Shown: piece after piece, positions 32,214-38,736 of the stretch
Numbering within the stretch: the first letter of the stretch is position 1
Layout of the letters: each line of letters starts with the position of its first letter
Assembly: GCA_002441285.1 (NCBI GenBank)
Contig: DJVR01000028.1
Coordinates: 2,910-66,909 of the forward strand
Direction of reading: 5' to 3'
Length of the DNA stretch: 64,000 nt
DNA from: Candidatus Atribacteria bacterium UBA6251
Lineage (GTDB): Bacteria; Atribacterota; Phoenicimicrobiia; Phoenicimicrobiales; Phoenicimicrobiaceae
Notes under the pieces: model-generated
Database searches by the model: none
Seen by the model: the letters and a program-made list of their open reading frames with translations, nothing else
Told to the model about the DNA's origin: nothing
Position numbers and translations under genes: made by a program

Positions 32214-32633
32214 GTTATTAATTTTTCTTCTTGAGCTATCTTTTTGATTTTGGTTAAAAATCGTCTTAAGATGTTATTCCTATCTTTTCTTGAAATCTGT
32301 AAATCTTTCTATAGAATCGTTTTTTTATAGAAATCGACTTTTCTAAGCCTTTACTTAATCCTTACCAGGAGTAATAATACTATAGCTGTTCTGATCATAG
32401 ATAGATTATAAGTCTTTTTGAAGCAGGATCGAGAATGAAAAGTAAATGATTATTACTATTTAAACTATAGATTGTAATTATTTAGAATAATTTTTTTTAC
32501 TACTTATAGTAGCGTTTACTTCCCGAATTTGTTAAAATTAAATTAATTATTAATAAAAAAAATCTTTTAATAATATTCTTAATGAATTTATTTGATAGAA
32601 TATAAAAAATTAATTATTTTATTGTGGTTAATT

Positions 32634-35600
32634 ATGACTAAAGAACAAAAATTTTATAAAGCGCTTCAAGATGTTTTCATCGGCGCCAAGATTGAGGGCA
32701 AAGGCGGTTTTGTTAATTTGATGAGGATTAAATCAAATTACTACCGCAAGATTGAAGATATTCTCAAAAATGACATTGAGACGGCTTTGGAAAGTTATCC
32801 CAAATTTAGGGATGAGCTTTTTGACAAACTATACTCATTTTTTAGCCGATACTTTACGAAAAGCGGCTCAATCTATTTCAATTCAACTCCATTTCATAAT
32901 AATATCTATGAAAAAGTCTATACCGATGATAAAGATGTCATTCTCTTTTGGAAAACGCAGATGCTCTACTATGTCAAAACGGATCGGATTTTCAGGAGTT
33001 TGCCAGTTGAATTCCCCTCTGATAGAGGGGTGGGCGCCGAAGGCGGACGGGGTGTTTTAAAATTTTACTTTGACGCTTCAAAGATAGAAAGCAAAAAAGC
33101 CAATGAAAAACGTTCGCTCGTTTTTGAGTTAAACAAAGTCCTTGAGGACGAAACCATTGTTTTTGGCGTTCAATACTCTGAAAGGGGCACAAAAACAAAG
33201 CAAGACGAGATACTAAAAGCCATAAAGAGAAAAGGCATAGCAATTACCGAAGAACAATTGGAACGCGCTTTTAGAGTCTTTGAAAAGCAAAGTGAGGTGG
33301 ATTTCTTTATCAATAAAAATGCCAAAGCATTCTTACAGGAACAATTTAAACTCTGGAGTTATCAGTATTTTTGGGAGGGAGCCAGAGAATGGGGGGCGGA
33401 TAGAGTCAATCAACTGCAAATTCTTAAAGATATTGCTTTCAAGATTATTGATTTCATCTCTCAGTTTGAGGACGAGCTGGTAAAAATCTGGAACAAGCCG
33501 AAGTTTGTTAAAAATTCAAACTATGTAATTACGCTGGGTAGGATTCTTTCTGCACGTCATTCTGAGCGAAGCGAAGAATCTCTTAAGTTAATTGAAAAAA
33601 TTCTAAAACATAAAAATATCACAGAACAAATTAAAGAATGGCAGGAGCTTGGAATTGTAGATAATGAATTTAAGGTAGAGAATGTTTTTGAAAATTCCCC
33701 TTCTATGAAGGGGTGTCAACCGAAGGTTGACGGGGTAGTGAAATGGAATGAATTACCATTCAATGCTGAACTTAAAGAAAGAGCCAAAGAATTGAGAAAA
33801 GCAGGTAATTTATCAGAAGTTTTATTATGGAACCAGGTCAAAAACAGGCAATTGTTGGGATTAGATTTTGATAGGCAAAAAATTATTGGAAATTACATAG
33901 TTGATTTTTATTGTAAAAACTTAGGGGTTGTTGTTGAAATTGATGGAGTAAGTCATGACGGGAAGGTTGAATATGATTTGGAACGAGATGCTTACTTAAG
34001 GGGATTAGGACTGAAAGTTATTCACATTTCCGATCTAGATGTAAAGAAAAATTTAGAAGGTGTAATTGAATTTCTGAAAGATGAATTAAACACCCCGTCT
34101 GCTAACGCAGACACCCCTCTACAAGAGGGGAATAAACACCCCGTCCCTTTGGGACACCCCTCTATAAGAGGGGAATTTAAGCATCTGCCGATTGATACGA
34201 AGTTTTTCAAGGATTTGGAGCTTGAGATTTTATCTCTTTTCGATGACCTTGATAATTCCTTAGATGGTTGGTTGATAAAGAGTGAAAATTATCAGGCGTT
34301 GAATACAATTCTGCCAAAGTTTAAAGAAAAAGTGCAAACGATATACATTGATCCACCGTTTAATACGGGTGATGATTTTCCTTATATTGATAAGTTCCAA
34401 AATTCTACATGGCTTACCTTGATGGAGAATAGATTAAAATTAGGAAAAGATTTTTTATGTTATAATGGTAGTATAAGTTTGCATTTAGATTCAAATGCAG
34501 ATTATTTTGGCAAAATATTATTAGACGAAACATTCGGGCAAGAATGCTTTAGAGTAAAAATTACATGGAAAAGGCACACAGGTCCTAAAATACAATCTCT
34601 ACACTTTCCTAATATATCCGATTTTATTTTAATTTATTCTAAAATAAACGACAATTGGGTATATAATCCTCAATATTTACCGTATAAAGAGGAGTATCTT
34701 AAGAAAATGTATAAGTACGAAGATGAAAAAGGAAAATACAGAATACATGATTTGTATGCTCCTGGGGAAGGGACAGAAAGAATATTCAAAGGGAAAACAA
34801 TAAAACCACCTAAAGGACATCACTGGAGTTATACACAAGAAAAAATTGATGAAATGATTAAAGAAGGAACAATATTTTTTGATAATAGGGGTTTTCCCAA
34901 ATTAAAAGTTTATTTAGGCAAGGGAGAACAAGTAACTAATATTTGGACAGATATAAATGTCATCCAAGGAAGTTCTATCGAATTCTTAAATTTTGCAACT
35001 CAGAAACCAGAAAAATTTTTATCAAGAGTCATACAATCTACATCTAATGTTGGCGACTTGGTTATGGACTTCTTCCTTGGCTCTGGCACAACCACAGCAG
35101 TAGCGCATAAACTCGGCAGGAAATGGATTGGTATTGAAATGGGAGAGCATTTTTATACAGTGGTTTTACCAAGAATGAAAAAGGTTTTGGCTTATGATAA
35201 ATCTGGTATTTCAAAAGAATTAAAAACGCCCCGTCCTTCGGACACCCCTCTACCAGAGGGGAATTCCCCTTCTATGAAGGGGTGGCAACCGCAGGTTGAC
35301 GGGGTAGTTTATCAAGGCGGTGGATTTTTCAAGTATTACGAACTTGAGCAATATGAAGAAGCGCTGGCAAACTGCAAATACGAAGATGGTGATTTGTTTA
35401 ATTCCCCTTTAATAAAGGGGTGGACTGCTGAAGGCAGGACGGGGTATTGGTCGGGCAGAAGTCCATATCAGGAATATGTCTTTATGAAAGACGAAAAAAT
35501 GTTGAAAACATTGGAGATTGATTATGAAAAAGAAAAGGTCAGAGTTGATTTATCAAGACTCTATCTAAACACCCCGTCTGCTAACGCAGACACCCCTCTA

Positions 35601-35756
35601 CAAGAGGGGAATATAGACATTGCCGAAACTCTGTCTAATTTAAAGGGAAAATATATCAAGCGAATTACTCCCGACGAAGTAGAATTTGAAGACGGCGAAA
35701 AAATCAATCTCAAAGATTTAGATTATAAAGTAATTAAACCCTTAATTTGGTGGTAA
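32634..35756 (+). CDS. mod: Type III R-M DNA methyltransferase (Mod; beta-class N6A/N4C MTase) carrying multiple in-frame insertions, including a DUF559 endonuclease domain
   Basis: Catalytic motif IV IYIDPPFNTGDDF comes before AdoMet motif I DFFLGSGTTTAVAHKLGRKWIGIE, the beta-class order typical of type III Mod. It lies 4 nt upstream of a Res-type helicase-nuclease gene. ATG 32634 (MTKEQKFYKAL) is more plausible than the listed TTG 32592. The insertions are listed as separate features. Confidence 0.85.
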   Translation: MTKEQKFYKALQDVFIGAKIEGKGGFVNLMRIKSNYYRKIEDILKNDIETALESYPKFRDELFDKLYSFFSRYFTKSGSIYFNSTPFHNNIYEKVYTDDKDVILFWKTQMLYYVKTDRIFRSLPVEFPSDRGVGAEGGRGVLKFYFDASKIESKKANEKRSLVFELNKVLEDETIVFGVQYSERGTKTKQDEILKAIKRKGIAITEEQLERAFRVFEKQSEVDFFINKNAKAFLQEQFKLWSYQYFWEGAREWGADRVNQLQILKDIAFKIIDFISQFEDELVKIWNKPKFVKNSNYVITLGRILSARHSERSEESLKLIEKILKHKNITEQIKEWQELGIVDNEFKVENVFENSPSMKGCQPKVDGVVKWNELPFNAELKERAKELRKAGNLSEVLLWNQVKNRQLLGLDFDRQKIIGNYIVDFYCKNLGVVVEIDGVSHDGKVEYDLERDAYLRGLGLKVIHISDLDVKKNLEGVIEFLKDELNTPSANADTPLQEGNKHPVPLGHPSIRGEFKHLPIDTKFFKDLELEILSLFDDLDNSLDGWLIKSENYQALNTILPKFKEKVQTIYIDPPFNTGDDFPYIDKFQNSTWLTLMENRLKLGKDFLCYNGSISLHLDSNADYFGKILLDETFGQECFRVKITWKRHTGPKIQSLHFPNISDFILIYSKINDNWVYNPQYLPYKEEYLKKMYKYEDEKGKYRIHDLYAPGEGTERIFKGKTIKPPKGHHWSYTQEKIDEMIKEGTIFFDNRGFPKLKVYLGKGEQVTNIWTDINVIQGSSIEFLNFATQKPEKFLSRVIQSTSNVGDLVMDFFLGSGTTTAVAHKLGRKWIGIEMGEHFYTVVLPRMKKVLAYDKSGISKELKTPRPSDTPLPEGNSPSMKGWQPQVDGVVYQGGGFFKYYELEQYEEALANCKYEDGDLFNSPLIKGWTAEGRTGYWSGRSPYQEYVFMKDEKMLKTLEIDYEKEKVRVDLSRLYLNTPSANADTPLQEGNIDIAETLSNLKGKYIKRITPDEVEFEDGEKINLKDLDYKVIKPLIWW
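33010..33054 (+). repeat. GC-rich double-hairpin element, copy 1 (forward), in frame in mod
   Basis: AATTCCCCTCT GAT AGAGGGG TGGG CGCC GAA GGCG GACGGGGTG, translated as EFPSDRGVGAEGGRGV. Confidence 0.8.
33542..33580 (+). repeat. Second type of small palindromic insert (HSERSEES-encoding) in mod
   Basis: GATTCTT (33542-48) pairs with AAGAATC (33574-80). Between them lies GTCATTCTGAGCGAAGCGAAGAATC, which has internal ATTCT/AGAAT and GC-GAA-GC pairings. Translated as SARHSERSEESL. It is GC-rich relative to its surroundings. Confidence 0.45.
33693..33738 (+). repeat. GC-rich double-hairpin element, copy 2 (forward); left boundary of the DUF559 cassette
   Basis: AATTCCCCTTC TAT GAAGGGG T GTCAACC GAA GGTTGAC GGGGTAG, translated as NSPSMKGCQPKVDGVV. 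Confidence 0.85.
34090..34134 (-). repeat. GC-rich double-hairpin element, copy 3 (inverted); right boundary of the DUF559 cassette
   Basis: ACACCCCGTCTGC TAAC GCAGACACCCCTCT ACA AGAGGGGAATA, translated as NTPSANADTPLQEGN. 34087-34134 is identical to 35566-35613 (48/48). Confidence 0.85.
34136..34177 (-). repeat. GC-rich double-hairpin element, copy 4 (inverted), tandem to copy 3
   Basis: ACACCCCGTCCC TTT GGGACACCCCTCT ATA AGAGGGGAATT, translated as KHPVPLGHPSIRGEF. The reading register differs from copy 3. Confidence 0.8.
35226..35265 (-). repeat. GC-rich double-hairpin element, copy 5 (inverted)
   Basis: ACGCCCCGTCC TTC GGACACCCCTCT ACC AGAGGGGAATT, translated as TPRPSDTPLPEGN (a third register). 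It shares its AATT end with copy 6. Confidence 0.8.
35262..35307 (+). repeat. GC-rich double-hairpin element, copy 6 (forward), abutting copy 5
   Basis: AATTCCCCTTC TAT GAAGGGG TGG CAACC GCA GGTTG ACGGGGTAG, translated as NSPSMKGWQPQVDGVV. The junction with copy 5 forms the 12-bp palindrome GGGGAATTCCCC (35258-35269). Confidence 0.85.
35400..35446 (+). repeat. GC-rich double-hairpin element, copy 7 (forward)
   Basis: AATTCCCCTTT AAT AAAGGGG TGGA CTGC TGAAG GCAG GACGGGGTA, translated as NSPLIKGWTAEGRTGY. Confidence 0.8.
35569..35613 (-). repeat. GC-rich double-hairpin element, copy 8 (inverted), exact duplicate of copy 3
   Basis: ACACCCCGTCTGCTAACGCAGACACCCCTCTACAAGAGGGGAATA, translated as NTPSANADTPLQEGN. 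Confidence 0.85.
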
Positions 35757-35760
35757 TAAT

Positions 35761-38736
35761 ATGGCAAAATTGTATCTTCAAGATATAGTAAATGACATTC
35801 CTTTTGAAAACTTGCCGGCAAAGTGGCAAGGGTTTGATTTTGCGCGGTTTTCAAAAGACAAAACGCTTTTTGATTTTCAAAAACAGGGACTTCAAAACGC
35901 GCTGAAAGGTCTATGGTTTTATTTCAAAGACAAGAACGGAGAAAAGCAAAGTTTGTACAATCACTATTTGGCAAACGACTTTACAGAAAAGTTTGATTAC
36001 GATTTAAAGAAAAAGGCGGAAGGGAAAACAGCAAAATATTTATTGGAATATGATAAAGATTATCCAGTGAAAGGCAATAAGATTTCATTTGCTCACTTTA
36101 TCAATAGAATGAGTTTTTGGATGGCGACCGGTTCAGGAAAAACTCTGATTATAGTTAAGTTGATTGAGCTTTTAGGCAAACTTATTGCCGAAAAAGAATT
36201 GCCGATAGGGGACATTCTTTATTTAGCACACCGCGACGACCTTTTGGACCAGTTTAAAAATCATGTTGAAGAATTTAACAGCTTTCATTTTGACACAAAA
36301 ATTAACCTTAAAAATTTGAGAGATTATGAAAGTGTGAAGCGCGAAAACGCCCTGCCTTTTGCCAAAAACGAAATTACTGTTTTTTATTATCGTTCTGACT
36401 TAATTTCCGATATTCAAAAAGAAAAGATTGTGAATTTCAGAAATTATGACGACAGCGGCAAGTGGTATATTCTTTTGGACGAAGCCCACAAAGGCGACAA
36501 GGAAGACAGTAAACGTCAGATTTTATACTCCATACTTTCAAGGAACGGATTTTTGTTTAATTTTTCCGCTACCTTTACCGATCCAAGGGACTTTGCAACC
36601 TGTGCTTTTAATTTCAATCTTTCAAGGTTTGTTGAAGAAGGATACGGCAAACATATTTATGTGTCTTCTGCCGAGATTAGCGCTTTTCGCGGACGAGGCG
36701 ATTTTTCGCCGATAGAAAAGCAAAAAATCGTTTTGAAAACGCTTTTGCTTTTAACCTATATTAGTAAACACCTTGAAAATATTAGGAGCGTAAATGATAC
36801 CCTATATCACCGTCCATTACTTTTAACTTTAGTTAATACAGTTTATGGCAAGAAAAAAGACGAGGGGGAAATAGAGAAAGAAGCTGATTTGAAATTGTTT
36901 TTCAATGAATTAGAAAAGATTGCCAAGAATGAAATTAGAGCGGATTTGCTCGAAAAAGCAAAACAGGAACTTATCCAAGAGTTTCGCGATGATGCAAAAT
37001 TTGAATTTGAGGAGTTAGAGTGCGCTGTCAACGCAGATTTGGTTTCAAAACTAGATTACAAAGATATTCTGAAATATATTTTGAACGCCGAAACTCCGGG
37101 CAAGATTGAGGTTTTAAAAATTCCCGGCAATAGGCAGGAATTGATTTTTAGGTTGATGACTGCTGAAAAGCCGTTTGCCTTAATCAAAATCGGCGATATT
37201 TCCGGCTGGCTAAAAGATAAACTTGAGGGATATGAAATAAACGAAAGTTTTGAAAATGAAAGTTATTTCCGGCGAATAAGTCGCGATGATTCTGACATAA
37301 ATGTTTTAATGGGTTCGCGCTCTTTTTACGAGGGCTGGGATTCTAACAGGCCAAATCTTATTTTGTTTGTGAATATTGGAGTTGGAAGCGATGCTAAAAA
37401 ATTTGTTCTGCAATCAGTCGGAAGGGGCGTAAGAATAGAGCCACAGAAATATTTAAGAAAGCGTCTTCAAAATTTGTTTAATGCAAAGAAAGTAAAAGAG
37501 CAATTATTTGAGAAAGTTAAGAACCTAATCTTGCCGATTGAGAGCTTGTTTGTTTTTGGGACTAACGCCGAAAACTTGAGAGAAATAATCGCAACACTAA
37601 AAGCGGAAAAGCAAGATAGAAATTTAGGTGAAGCGTTTATTTTAAATCCTGAAGCGCAAAAACATCTTCTTTTGGTGCCGGTTTACAAAAACTCTGAAAG
37701 GATTTTTGCCGAAGAAAAAGACCCGCAGAAATATTCTATCAGTCGCAAAGATTTTGATATAACATCTCAATTTTATGGATTTTTAGGCGATAAAATCGCT
37801 TTAGCCAAATATGATTGCGAAGTGAAGGTTTTAAAGAAAGCAAAAGAAAGTTTTGAAGAAAAAGAACGATACTATGATTTTAGCGAAAGAAATTCGCTTT
37901 TTGAGCCGGAGTTAACCCTTGGCCAGATTTTTGATTATCTCGGAGTTAAAAGCAAGGAGTTTGAAACGTTTAAAGAGTTGGAAAATGAAATTGTGCATTT
38001 CAAAAAGGTTAGATTCAGTGATGGTGGAAAATACCAAAAGATGTTAGAAGCGATTGATAAAGTTAAAAATTATCCACAAAAAAAAATCAAAGAAAAAGAG
38101 GTAGATGAAGAGTTTGATAGAACAAGGAATAAAGAAAAGTATAAACAAGAATTAAAGCAACTTGAGTTAAATTTTCAACGAGAAGTAAGGTATGACAAAT
38201 TAAAAATTAAGTATTTAGCCAACCATTACTATCTTCCGGTTATAGTTTCAGAAACTGAAAAAATTGACTACCTGAACCATATTATTAATGTTGATAGTGA
38301 GGTAAAATTTATTGAAGAATTGGGGGAAAATATTGATAAATTAAAAAATATTTTTGATTGGTGGATGTTTTCAAAACTTGACCAAACACTGGATGAAGTA
38401 TCAATACCTTATTACAATCCGAAAGAAAATAGTATCTCTAATTTCAAACCCGACTTCATTTTTTGGGCACAAAAAGGAAACCGATACTTTATTTTATTTG
38501 TTGACCCTAAGGGAACCGAACATGCAGACGGTTATAGAAAGATTGACGGCTATTCAAGAATATTTGAAATTGAAAAAGATGGACAAAAACAAAGCAAAGA
38601 TTTTTTATACTCTGAATTTACCATAAATGTGAAGCTATTGCTGAAACCAAGGCGAGGAAAAGCTGGAGTTTTGAATAATTACAAAGGATACTGGTTTGAC
38701 AATTTCGAGGATTTTAATAATAAAATAAAAATATAG
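35761..38736 (+). CDS. res: Type III restriction enzyme Res subunit (SF2 helicase-like ATPase with C-terminal PD-(D/E)xK nuclease)
   Basis: 991 aa. Motif I WMATGSGKT, motif II ILLDEAHKG, motif III FNFSATF, motif VI QSVGRGVRI. C-terminal nuclease-like FKPDFIFW...FILFVDPKG. Starts 4 nt after the mod stop. Confidence 0.8.
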   Translation: MAKLYLQDIVNDIPFENLPAKWQGFDFARFSKDKTLFDFQKQGLQNALKGLWFYFKDKNGEKQSLYNHYLANDFTEKFDYDLKKKAEGKTAKYLLEYDKDYPVKGNKISFAHFINRMSFWMATGSGKTLIIVKLIELLGKLIAEKELPIGDILYLAHRDDLLDQFKNHVEEFNSFHFDTKINLKNLRDYESVKRENALPFAKNEITVFYYRSDLISDIQKEKIVNFRNYDDSGKWYILLDEAHKGDKEDSKRQILYSILSRNGFLFNFSATFTDPRDFATCAFNFNLSRFVEEGYGKHIYVSSAEISAFRGRGDFSPIEKQKIVLKTLLLLTYISKHLENIRSVNDTLYHRPLLLTLVNTVYGKKKDEGEIEKEADLKLFFNELEKIAKNEIRADLLEKAKQELIQEFRDDAKFEFEELECAVNADLVSKLDYKDILKYILNAETPGKIEVLKIPGNRQELIFRLMTAEKPFALIKIGDISGWLKDKLEGYEINESFENESYFRRISRDDSDINVLMGSRSFYEGWDSNRPNLILFVNIGVGSDAKKFVLQSVGRGVRIEPQKYLRKRLQNLFNAKKVKEQLFEKVKNLILPIESLFVFGTNAENLREIIATLKAEKQDRNLGEAFILNPEAQKHLLLVPVYKNSERIFAEEKDPQKYSISRKDFDITSQFYGFLGDKIALAKYDCEVKVLKKAKESFEEKERYYDFSERNSLFEPELTLGQIFDYLGVKSKEFETFKELENEIVHFKKVRFSDGGKYQKMLEAIDKVKNYPQKKIKEKEVDEEFDRTRNKEKYKQELKQLELNFQREVRYDKLKIKYLANHYYLPVIVSETEKIDYLNHIINVDSEVKFIEELGENIDKLKNIFDWWMFSKLDQTLDEVSIPYYNPKENSISNFKPDFIFWAQKGNRYFILFVDPKGTEHADGYRKIDGYSRIFEIEKDGQKQSKDFLYSEFTINVKLLLKPRRGKAGVLNNYKGYWFDNFEDFNNKIKI

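Follow-up and report, generated by a model that had tools for sequence, protein, structure and literature searches.

A DUF559 nuclease gene between inverted double-hairpin repeats in a type III-like mod gene of Candidatus Atribacteria, a probable copy of a widespread REP/RAYT-like selfish element

The 64,000-nt stretch of Candidatus Atribacteria bacterium UBA6251 analysed here (GenBank assembly GCA_002441285.1, contig DJVR01000028.1, positions 2,910 to 66,909; the whole stretch is hereafter called the window) contains mod, a gene for a type III-like N6_N4 DNA methyltransferase. At 33693–34177 this gene harbours, in frame, a cassette in which a nuclease domain of the family DUF559 lies between inverted copies of a short repeat with two hairpins, and further copies of the same repeat are found elsewhere in the gene. 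An earlier reading made from the letters alone (the sequence-only reading) had compared the cassette to a cargo-carrying mini-transposon. A covariance model (CM) built from 48 repeat copies was run filter-free over the entire window. Together with the open reading frame (ORF) call and Pfam annotation, it delineated the following features of mod.

32592–35756, forward strand: mod ORF, type III-like N6_N4 DNA methyltransferase (ORF call and Pfam), host of every insertion
33010–33056, forward strand: solo forward repeat copy, in frame, encoding FPSDRGVGAEGGRGV (CM E 1e-16); several orthologues are without it
33693–33739, forward strand: left end of the cassette, a forward copy laid out as AATT-hairpin A-TG-hairpin B-GGGGTAGT and translated NSPSMKGCQPKVDGVV (CM E 7e-18)
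33741–34086, forward strand: DUF559 (Vsr-like PD-(D/E)XK) nuclease domain, the cargo (Pfam E 2e-28)
34089–34134, reverse strand: right end of the cassette, inner reverse copy, translated NTPSANADTPLQEGN (CM E 2e-17; repeat family D2)
34135–34177, reverse strand: right end of the cassette, outer tandem reverse copy (KHPVPLGHPSIRGEF; CM E 2.5e-16)
35225–35265, reverse strand (CM E 4e-14), with 35262–35308, forward strand (CM E 2e-17): tail-to-tail dimer sharing one AATT, in frame
35400–35448, forward strand: solo forward copy, in frame (NSPLIKGWTAEGRTGY; CM E 3e-13)
35568–35613, reverse strand: solo reverse copy, in frame (NTPSANADTPLQEGN; CM E 2e-17)

The eight full repeat copies returned by the model (E 7e-18 to 3e-13) all lie within mod. 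The next best were eight 17-nt matches that echo these hairpins on the reverse strand (E 0.017–0.035), followed by a match at E 0.4. With all eight copies within 3.2 kb of the 64 kb, the chance of the other seven falling in the same gene is approximately 7e-10. The matches place the parts of the cassette as the sequence-only reading had placed them: a complete DUF559 domain, one forward copy on its left and two tandem reverse copies on its right, with the AATT ends pointing outward and the ACGGGGT ends facing the nuclease, i.e., a terminal-inverted-repeat layout. The same arrangement of one left and two right copies was seen at two further loci (L120 and L166). The left-end copy is predicted to fold as DNA into two hairpins (-12.5 kcal/mol, z -4.8). 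The whole unit, 33693–34177, is open in the mod frame, as had been claimed. An intein or an intron at this position was considered and rejected. No Hint or intein family matched in Pfam, the junctions (..VFE/NSPS.. and ..IRGE/FKHL..) carry the wrong residues, and an Rfam scan of 32500–35800 at E <= 1 returned only a chance tmRNA fragment, the frame being continuous; the earlier statements that the unit has no intein hallmarks and resembles neither a group I nor a group II intron were therefore borne out.

Certain copies within mod closely resemble one another. The pairs 34090–34134 and 35569–35613, and 33693–33739 and 35262–35308, are 96–100% identical; the inner right copy matches the copy at 35566–35618 over 53 nt (~96% identity), and the identity of one pair extends to five flanking bases (TAAAC). 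Old insertions that arose independently would be expected to differ more, which suggests that gene conversion or recent copying took place within mod.

The cargo aligns with nearly all of the DUF559 profile (PF04480; positions 3–107 of 109), occupying residues 394–498 of Mod with a score of 98.8 bits against a cut-off of 20.6. Among sequences in the PDB it matched 3HRL (E 3e-12), a Neisseria DUF559 structure that was also the top Foldseek hit of the AlphaFold (AF2) model (template modelling (TM) score 0.86, 1.6 A). The next hits were the catalytic domain of I-Bth0305I (3R3P, E 4e-4, TM 0.70), then Vsr (1CW0/1VSR) and the nuclease domains of PvuRts1I/AbaSI. The core was modelled with a predicted local distance difference test (pLDDT) score of 77–93, and the repeat-encoded flanks, scoring below 50, are predicted to be disordered. 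Six acidic or histidine residues (D58, D71, E82, D84, H88 and D95) are invariant in 22 sequences. The ratio of nonsynonymous to synonymous substitution rates (dN/dS) of the nested DUF559 copies was 0.05–0.08, a range that leaves out a misframed comparison with L120, which indicates that the nuclease has been kept functional and not merely tolerated.

The repeat is constrained at the level of DNA structure. Its consensus reads (A)ATT-CCCCTCC-nnn-GGAGGGG-T-G[stem B]C-GGGGT(G/A)(G/T)T. Hairpin A is a conserved stem of 7 bp (CCCCTCC-nnn-GGAGGGG) whose last two pairs switch jointly between C-G and T-A. Hairpin B varies in both sequence and length (3–10 bp) and keeps its complementarity, with both-sided changes in 6 of 7 modelled pairs. 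Paired cells amounted to 94.8%, compared with 83% in shuffles and 46–58% when the partners were slid, and the covariation score (0.201 vs 0.071) was reached by none of 500 shuffles. Folded as single-stranded DNA, the window copies form two hairpins each (z = -4.8 to -7.5 vs shuffles). The loops of stem B are mainly C-GAA-G or C-GCA-G; GNA triloops are unusually stable in DNA, hinting that the hairpins act as DNA. The scan of 32500–35800 found no Rfam family for the repeat. A GTAG tag is not a consensus feature, since the consensus ends in CGGGGTGGT and GTAG occurs only in AT-rich variants such as GGGGTAGT. Among the nearest flanking copies at the 80 loci described below (L001–L080), a long stem B (GGCAGGCGAAGCCTGAC type, in which a G·A mismatch close to the base is conserved) was commoner upstream of DUF559 (47% of left vs 20% of right copies), and the copy downstream is usually of the short GCCCGAAGGGC type.

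The pairing of nuclease and repeat reaches well beyond this gene. A single search with the 161-aa cassette found more than 2,700 homologues, and the flanks were surveyed at 80 genomic loci from ~20 phyla, the closest relatives of a Mod-nested copy among at least 545 found. Within 200 nt upstream of DUF559 there were 89 forward and 27 reverse copies, and over the same distance downstream 68 reverse and 17 forward copies. At least one correctly oriented flanking copy was present at 73 of the 80 loci and both flanks were occupied at 48, so that the association of other DUF559 genes with the element, which the sequence-only reading had proposed to check, holds across these phyla. Repeat density was 6.3 per kb within 200 nt of DUF559 and 0.12 per kb more than 400 nt away, a 54-fold difference. 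Spacing is also regular: left copies typically end 13–25 nt before the domain, and right copies start between 4 nt inside and 40 nt after it. Stand-alone DUF559 ORFs with the same repeat-encoded termini, 55–78% identical, occur in Parcubacteria, Aenigmarchaeota, Bacteroidota, Gallionella, cyanobacteria and others. The odd Pro/Gly-rich termini of such ORFs, which the sequence-only reading had mentioned, are the repeat-encoded peptides NSPxLxGWQAKPDGVV and TPxLRxTPLQEGN.

Scans that started from the repeat returned mostly solo copies. Among 2.9 million IMG/VR viral contigs there were 30 loci with ~60 copies, and one of these loci (L112) has a DUF559, in the canonical forward-DUF559-reverse order; phages were rejected as the main carriers on these numbers. 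In the same set, 10 of 46 testable copies lay in an open frame, compared with 58% of random positions, which indicates that the repeat is mainly extragenic. A metagenome scan with the AT-rich variant gave 80 loci (492 kb, 176 copies); DUF559 was present at 12 of them, at 11 in canonical order, and most copies were again solo.

Two compound forms of the repeat recur. The first is a 75-nt internally deleted unit, in which a full left copy is joined to a right copy truncated in stem B (..GACGGGGTAGTTCGCAGACACCCC..). It was found as a tandem pair at L186:2089–2163 and 2173–2248, singly at L157:4412–4485 and L121:6105–6178, and in L082 at the mod site that holds the cassette in the window (site 2 below). 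It resembles an internally deleted form of the DUF559 element that propagates and, with the many solo copies, sustains the earlier suggestion that the short copies resemble miniature inverted-repeat transposable elements (MITEs). The second is an 86-nt tail-to-tail dimer of a right-type reverse and a left-type forward copy with one shared AATT, which recurs in unrelated contigs (L117:459–544, L145:1817–1902, L149:178–263, L151 and L163) and in the window at 35225–35308. This is how the abutted outer ends of a composite element would be expected to look, as in a circle or tandem junction. A reading of head-to-head doublets as unoccupied homing sites was not supported, cargo-free abutted inner ends being rare (seven in the DUF559-first set, with gaps of 29–56 nt). 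The doublet of P0045/L082 is not an unoccupied site; its right copy is truncated inside stem B at a TTC microhomology, which makes it a deletion derivative.

Outside these samples, a plasmid collection held only distant DUF559s (<45% identity). Distant DUF559 genes, 35–37% identical, are bordered by G-rich hairpins of related grammar in an E. coli record (L236, NZ_OL790696.1; 733–950) and in Azospirillum (L234; 315–435 and 795–815). Examples of these hairpins are CCCTCTGGGGAGAGGGTTAGGGTGAGGGG and CCCTCCCC..GGGGGAGGGTTAGGGTGGGGGC, and the Azospirillum gene ends in ..CGGAGGGGAATT. The repeat association may reach the whole DUF559 family.

Mobility could be followed within the Mod family itself, as homologues 52–86% identical are found in Ignavibacteriota, Hydrogenedentes, Marinimicrobia, Leptospirae and others. 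In the Mod alignment the cassette is missing from P0004, P0009, P0019, P0016 and P0088. Elsewhere it occupies one of two sites: site 2, after ..IVDxxFKxxxVFE, in the window and in P0002, P0003, P0005, P0013 and P0081, or site 1, directly after VITLDRI and ~40 residues further upstream, in P0026, P0027, P0030, P0039 and P0041. In most carriers the flanks of the cassette are clearly element-encoded (NSPSxKGWQxKPDGVV on the left, TPSANADTPLQEGN-like on the right), and those of P0041 and P0081 are diverged. Identities to the window protein were as follows.

P0002 and P0003 (site 2): host N-terminus 90–91%, DUF559 82–83%
P0005 and P0013 (site 2): host N-terminus 89–90%, DUF559 58–59%
P0081 (site 2): host N-terminus 84%, DUF559 38%
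Site-1 carriers: host N-terminus 78–87%, DUF559 70–80%

The mismatch between host and DUF559 identities implies that at least three DUF559 lineages have held site 2, and that one lineage is present at both sites. The cassette is thus present or absent at a defined site in a conserved host, with a cargo history incongruent with that of the host, as is typical of a homing gene.

Filled and empty alleles were also compared at the DNA level, between the window and L002, L003, L054, L081 (the locus of P0004) and L082 (that of P0045). For six insertion sites in mod there are orthologues with an empty allele, a pattern like that of Rickettsia palindromic elements. At 33010–33056, 43 nt stand in place of 7 nt after a pre-existing GAATT (empty in L003, L054 and L081). 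The copy at 35400–35448 is a 45-nt insertion after TTTAATT relative to L054 and L081, where the empty site reads TTTAATTCCCCT / TTTAATGCCCCA (AATTCCCCT or AATGCCCCA), and, compared with L003, L081 and L082, the copy at 35568–35613 consists of 42 nt cleanly inserted between CCAAAY and ATAGAC. The dimer at 35225–35308 is an 81-nt insertion, of which orthologues hold none, the reverse copy alone, or both. The outer AATT pre-exists in the empty target in three of three forward-copy cases, and the 42-nt site has only TATT. The filled and empty sites that the sequence-only reading had proposed to look for therefore exist, both for the cassette (absent from five homologues, present at two sites) and for the solo copies, which are discrete insertions. 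Left repeat, DUF559 and right repeat form a unit whose relocation and replacement do not depend on the host gene, and single repeats insert on their own beside AATT.

These results bear on a more conventional explanation, a domain fusion in which DUF559 is an accessory nuclease domain of restriction-modification (R-M) enzymes and the flanks are flexible linkers. Full-length Mod proteins with DUF559 occur in many phyla, the domain occupies conserved nested positions in HsdR, type ISP/IIG methyltransferases, HsdS and Mod, its dN/dS is low (0.05–0.08), and its flanks are predicted to be disordered, as linkers would be. However, the cassette comes and goes among Mods that are 75–90% identical, uses two sites, one of which has held three diverged lineages, and leaves all conserved methyltransferase blocks in place in the orthologues that are without it. 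The supposed linkers are constrained as DNA hairpins with compensatory changes; the same sequences exist as solo copies, mostly extragenic, and flank stand-alone DUF559 genes between housekeeping genes. The sequence-only reading had expected of a fusion that mod homologues of unrelated lineages would carry DUF559 at the same position without flanking repeats, but those found in other phyla have it with repeat flanks (diverged in P0041 and P0081), at two sites and from three lineages. A conventional fusion is accordingly quite improbable.

The element resides mostly in R-M genes or operons. The DUF559 core was nested in frame, in an open frame of at least 330 aa, at 35 of the 80 loci. Among 25 nested hosts scanned with Pfam, 21 are R-M genes: eight type I HsdR, all with the cassette at one site between the HSDR_N and helicase domains, eight type ISP/IIG methyltransferases, two N6_N4 methyltransferases and three HsdS. 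A radical SAM protein (L015) was the only clearly non-R-M host, and three were without assignment. Examples of cassette-bearing loci are L012:2068–5727, L008:313–3975 and L007:2320–4176. Three further nested loci (L001, L003 and L054) are mod genes, and with L068 and with L002, which ends at the contig edge, the mod loci number five. Type I operons enclose 7 of 15 stand-alone copies (HsdS/DUF559/HsdM or HsdR/DUF559/HsdS), and the rest lie between housekeeping genes. In all, ~60% of the sampled copies are in R-M genes or operons. This preference is far above the R-M share of a genome, and is a point that the sequence-only reading had missed. One HsdR (L023:1558–5964) contains a nested GIY-YIG domain (aa 275–343) as well as a nested DUF559, with a different hairpin (CCTGTCTGCGTGCAACGCACAGGCAG) just upstream of GIY-YIG, which suggests that R-M genes collect several kinds of in-frame nuclease insertions.

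The centre of Mod (window aa ~600–800; alignment columns ~745–1000) is wholly different among homologues that are otherwise 80–90% identical. Alternative target-recognition domains are usual among type III mod alleles, and the variable central block is a case of these. It is conceivable that the element has become a host-domesticated module serving R-M systems, by making breaks that promote the exchange of specificity domains or by Vsr-type repair, a role that would be compatible with a selfish origin. The share of copies in R-M genes and operons would fit such a role, as would the conservation of the repeat-bearing flanks of Mod around a specificity region that differs between alleles, and the position of the cassette in HsdS and type ISP enzymes, where it adjoins or sits within specificity domains. 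It is at odds with domestication that no repeat copy directly borders the variable block of this Mod in either the alignment or the window scan, that half of the stand-alone copies have unrelated housekeeping genes on either side, that the repeat-first copies are mostly extragenic and not R-M-associated, and that no evidence of repeat-bounded domain swaps was obtained. Such a module is a most improbable explanation of the cassette.

Among known systems, the element resembles repetitive extragenic palindromes (REPs) and their REP-associated tyrosine transposases (RAYTs), known as REPtrons and REPINs, in which a small enzyme gene lies between inverted GC-rich hairpin repeats that are also dispersed as solo or dimeric copies, mostly extragenic, with dimers common and stems that covary (PMC3733652, PMC3116915). 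It differs from them in its enzyme, a Vsr-like PD-(D/E)XK nuclease and not an HUH tyrosine transposase (no cassette had a Y1_Tnp match), in having two hairpins and no GTAG tag in the consensus, and in crossing phyla at 55–80% protein identity, often nested in frame in R-M genes. Insertion beside a short motif without duplication, with subterminal hairpins, also recalls the single-strand logic of IS200/IS605 and REP/RAYT, although the enzyme class is different. Like Rickettsia palindromic elements and intragenic REPs, the repeats are short palindromes that lie in frame in genes and encode extra peptides that orthologues lack (PMC3733652), but they are 42–47 nt long, compared with ~100–150 nt for the Rickettsia elements, occur in many phyla and are tied to a specific nuclease gene.

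Two further classes share part of this design. The EDxHD/Vsr-like homing endonucleases (I-Bth0305I, ‘fractured genes’) have the same nuclease fold and are likewise selfish genes in host genes with presence/absence polymorphism (PMC3239194, PMC2677866). They are housed in group I introns, in inteins or between the halves of split inteins and bring NUMOD modules for DNA binding, whereas the unit described here is spliced out of neither RNA nor protein, lacks a further DNA-binding domain and is bounded by hairpin repeats. Other copies of the unit are free-standing. As with MITEs and their autonomous parents, terminal inverted repeats surround a coding cargo and short internally deleted derivatives keep both ends (the 75-nt form). 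Unlike in those elements, only DUF559 lies between the ends, with no DDE, HUH, serine or tyrosine transposase, and single ends propagate alone. The term ‘mini-transposon’ used in the sequence-only reading thus holds for the architecture (inverted ends, cargo and mobility), but no transposase-type chemistry is evident and no target duplication was shown.

Taken together, these data make it probable that 33693–34177 is one copy of a widespread selfish element of REP/RAYT-like design, a Vsr-like DUF559 gene between inverted ~45-nt double-hairpin repeats. We infer that DUF559 is the enzyme that moves the repeats, and the cleavage positions and copying pathway proposed here are likewise conditional. 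As single-stranded or cruciform DNA, the repeats would fold into two hairpins, and DUF559, supplied from Mod or from stand-alone copies, would recognise the hairpin-defined ends and nick or cut at the AATT/CCCC and GGGGT/RKT boundaries. Host replication or repair could then copy or paste the unit beside AATT-like targets without a long target duplication. The other copies in mod (three solos and one tail-to-tail dimer) would be non-autonomous relatives of the cassette ends, and recombination between repeats could swap or delete the nuclease cargo. Selection in Mod would spare only in-frame, stop-free insertions in tolerant surface linkers; survival in frame could be explained by this selection, as in the frames used the repeat has no stop codon and its translation products are flexible linkers. 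The translated repeats would form disordered Pro/Gly/Ser-rich linkers, from which DUF559 would fold as an independent nested domain. Residence in R-M genes, often transferred and hard to lose, would explain the spread across phyla.

Several points weigh against an active, DUF559-driven element. There is no copy outside mod in the window, and the copies there may be old passengers inherited with mod and not a sign of current activity. PD-(D/E)XK nucleases cut DNA and do not join it, so that a second, host activity would be needed. The literature yielded no characterised DUF559 enzyme and no biochemical activity is known for the family, whose one solved structure, 3HRL, comes from structural genomics. 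The strong purifying selection on DUF559, like its recurrence in R-M enzymes, would also be expected of a domain that benefits the host, and sampling of the closest relatives of a Mod-nested copy may inflate the R-M bias. No faithful target-site duplication was found at the compared sites, and the inner end, T(A/G)(G/T)T, is not an exact duplicate. Lastly, 84% of the copies in the metagenome repeat-first sample are not near a DUF559.

This last figure would suit an explanation in which something else mobilises the repeats, be it a single-strand transposase of the RAYT/IS200 type or host replication and repair, and DUF559 is carried along or serves as a favoured landing site. HUH single-strand transposons such as IS200/IS605 are marked by subterminal DNA hairpins together with insertion next to a fixed short motif that is not duplicated. 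PD-(D/E)XK enzymes are without strand-transfer chemistry, and REP classes that have no transposase of their own have been described (PMC3733652). A passenger or landing site would not readily account for the 54-fold enrichment of repeats at DUF559, their consistent inward orientation and fixed spacing in ~20 phyla, or the co-conservation of repeat and nuclease across phyla. Moreover, the nuclease moves between sites together with both ends, and no transposase gene was a recurrent neighbour in the flanks examined. Mobilisation by another agent is therefore unlikely, and a selfish element with DUF559 as its own nuclease is retained as the probable explanation.

The gene that hosts these insertions begins at a likely real start of ATG 32634, as in the identical database protein P0001 (1040 aa, 100% identity), and its N6_N4_Mtase domain spans residues 581–856 (Pfam, E 1e-36). 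At 35761–38736 on the forward strand it is followed by res, the ResIII helicase gene of the same R-M system (Pfam ResIII E 1.5e-18), in which the covariance-model scan of the window found no repeat copy. By its N6_N4_Mtase domain and the adjoining ResIII ORF, Mod belongs with the type III enzymes. Recent horizontal acquisition of mod was not supported by composition, as its G+C content of 0.33–0.39 is like that of its neighbours.

Two other insertions were noted in the same gene family. A second, unrelated short repeat (CATTCTGAGCGAAGCGAAGAATC; wider form tGTCATTCTGAGCGAAGCGAAGAATCtc) lies in frame in mod outside the DUF559 unit, at 33558–33580 on the forward strand (insert roughly 33547–33582), and encodes ..SARHSERSEESL... 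It is present at the identical site in P0009 and P0016, and other Mod homologues are without it. In IMG/VR contigs, at least 93 copies match its 21-base-specified pattern exactly. A partnership of this mini-insert, with its HSERSEES motif, with GIY-YIG nucleases was considered and rejected, as a motif regular expression found a GIY-YIG-like ORF within 600 nt of none of the 93 copies and the hairpin upstream of the GIY-YIG domain in L023 is a different one. At the first insertion site in Mod (that of 33010–33056), L082:~800–880 and P0030 carry another hairpin-like insert, CCCGCCTCCGCTGAAGCTTCGGCGGGCAGGGACGGA, encoding PASAEASAGRDG, and the linker there is a hot spot that takes up inserts of different kinds.

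Full-text literature searches found no prior description of a DUF559-hairpin element, which is apparently undescribed. A superfamily of CGTC-tagged REPs has been reported without a dedicated transposase from Bacteroidetes, Spirochaetes and Thermotogae, sometimes intragenic (Di Nocera et al. 2013, PMC3733652). Hairpin B, when reversed, reads CCCGTC-stem-loop-stem-CCA and resembles them, but identity with these families was rejected, since the published stems (8–9 bp starting with AT, loops of 4–5 nt), compared by text description, do not match the consensus found here; the resemblance is a lead only. As a tentative generalisation, which we hold with some reserve, DUF559 proteins may be the dedicated nucleases of an unrecognised class of REP-like hairpin elements, a non-HUH ‘REPtron’ that spreads across bacterial and some archaeal phyla largely by unspliced in-frame nesting in R-M genes.

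If this is true, it would provide a function for DUF559 and possibly the missing enzyme of the RAYT-less REP classes, and selfish elements made of a nuclease gene and hairpin repeats would extend beyond the HUH transposases. For DUF559, a large group of unknown function, the concrete candidate function is that of a structure-specific nuclease with a defined DNA substrate of 45 nt. The cassette also illustrates that other enzymes can accommodate an entire nuclease gene without splicing. The unsuspected link between a mobile repeat and R-M genes bears on how R-M systems move and diversify. For annotation, the element accounts for the Pro/Gly-rich termini of many short ORFs and for the ‘extra domains’ in HsdR, Mod, HsdS and type ISP enzymes.

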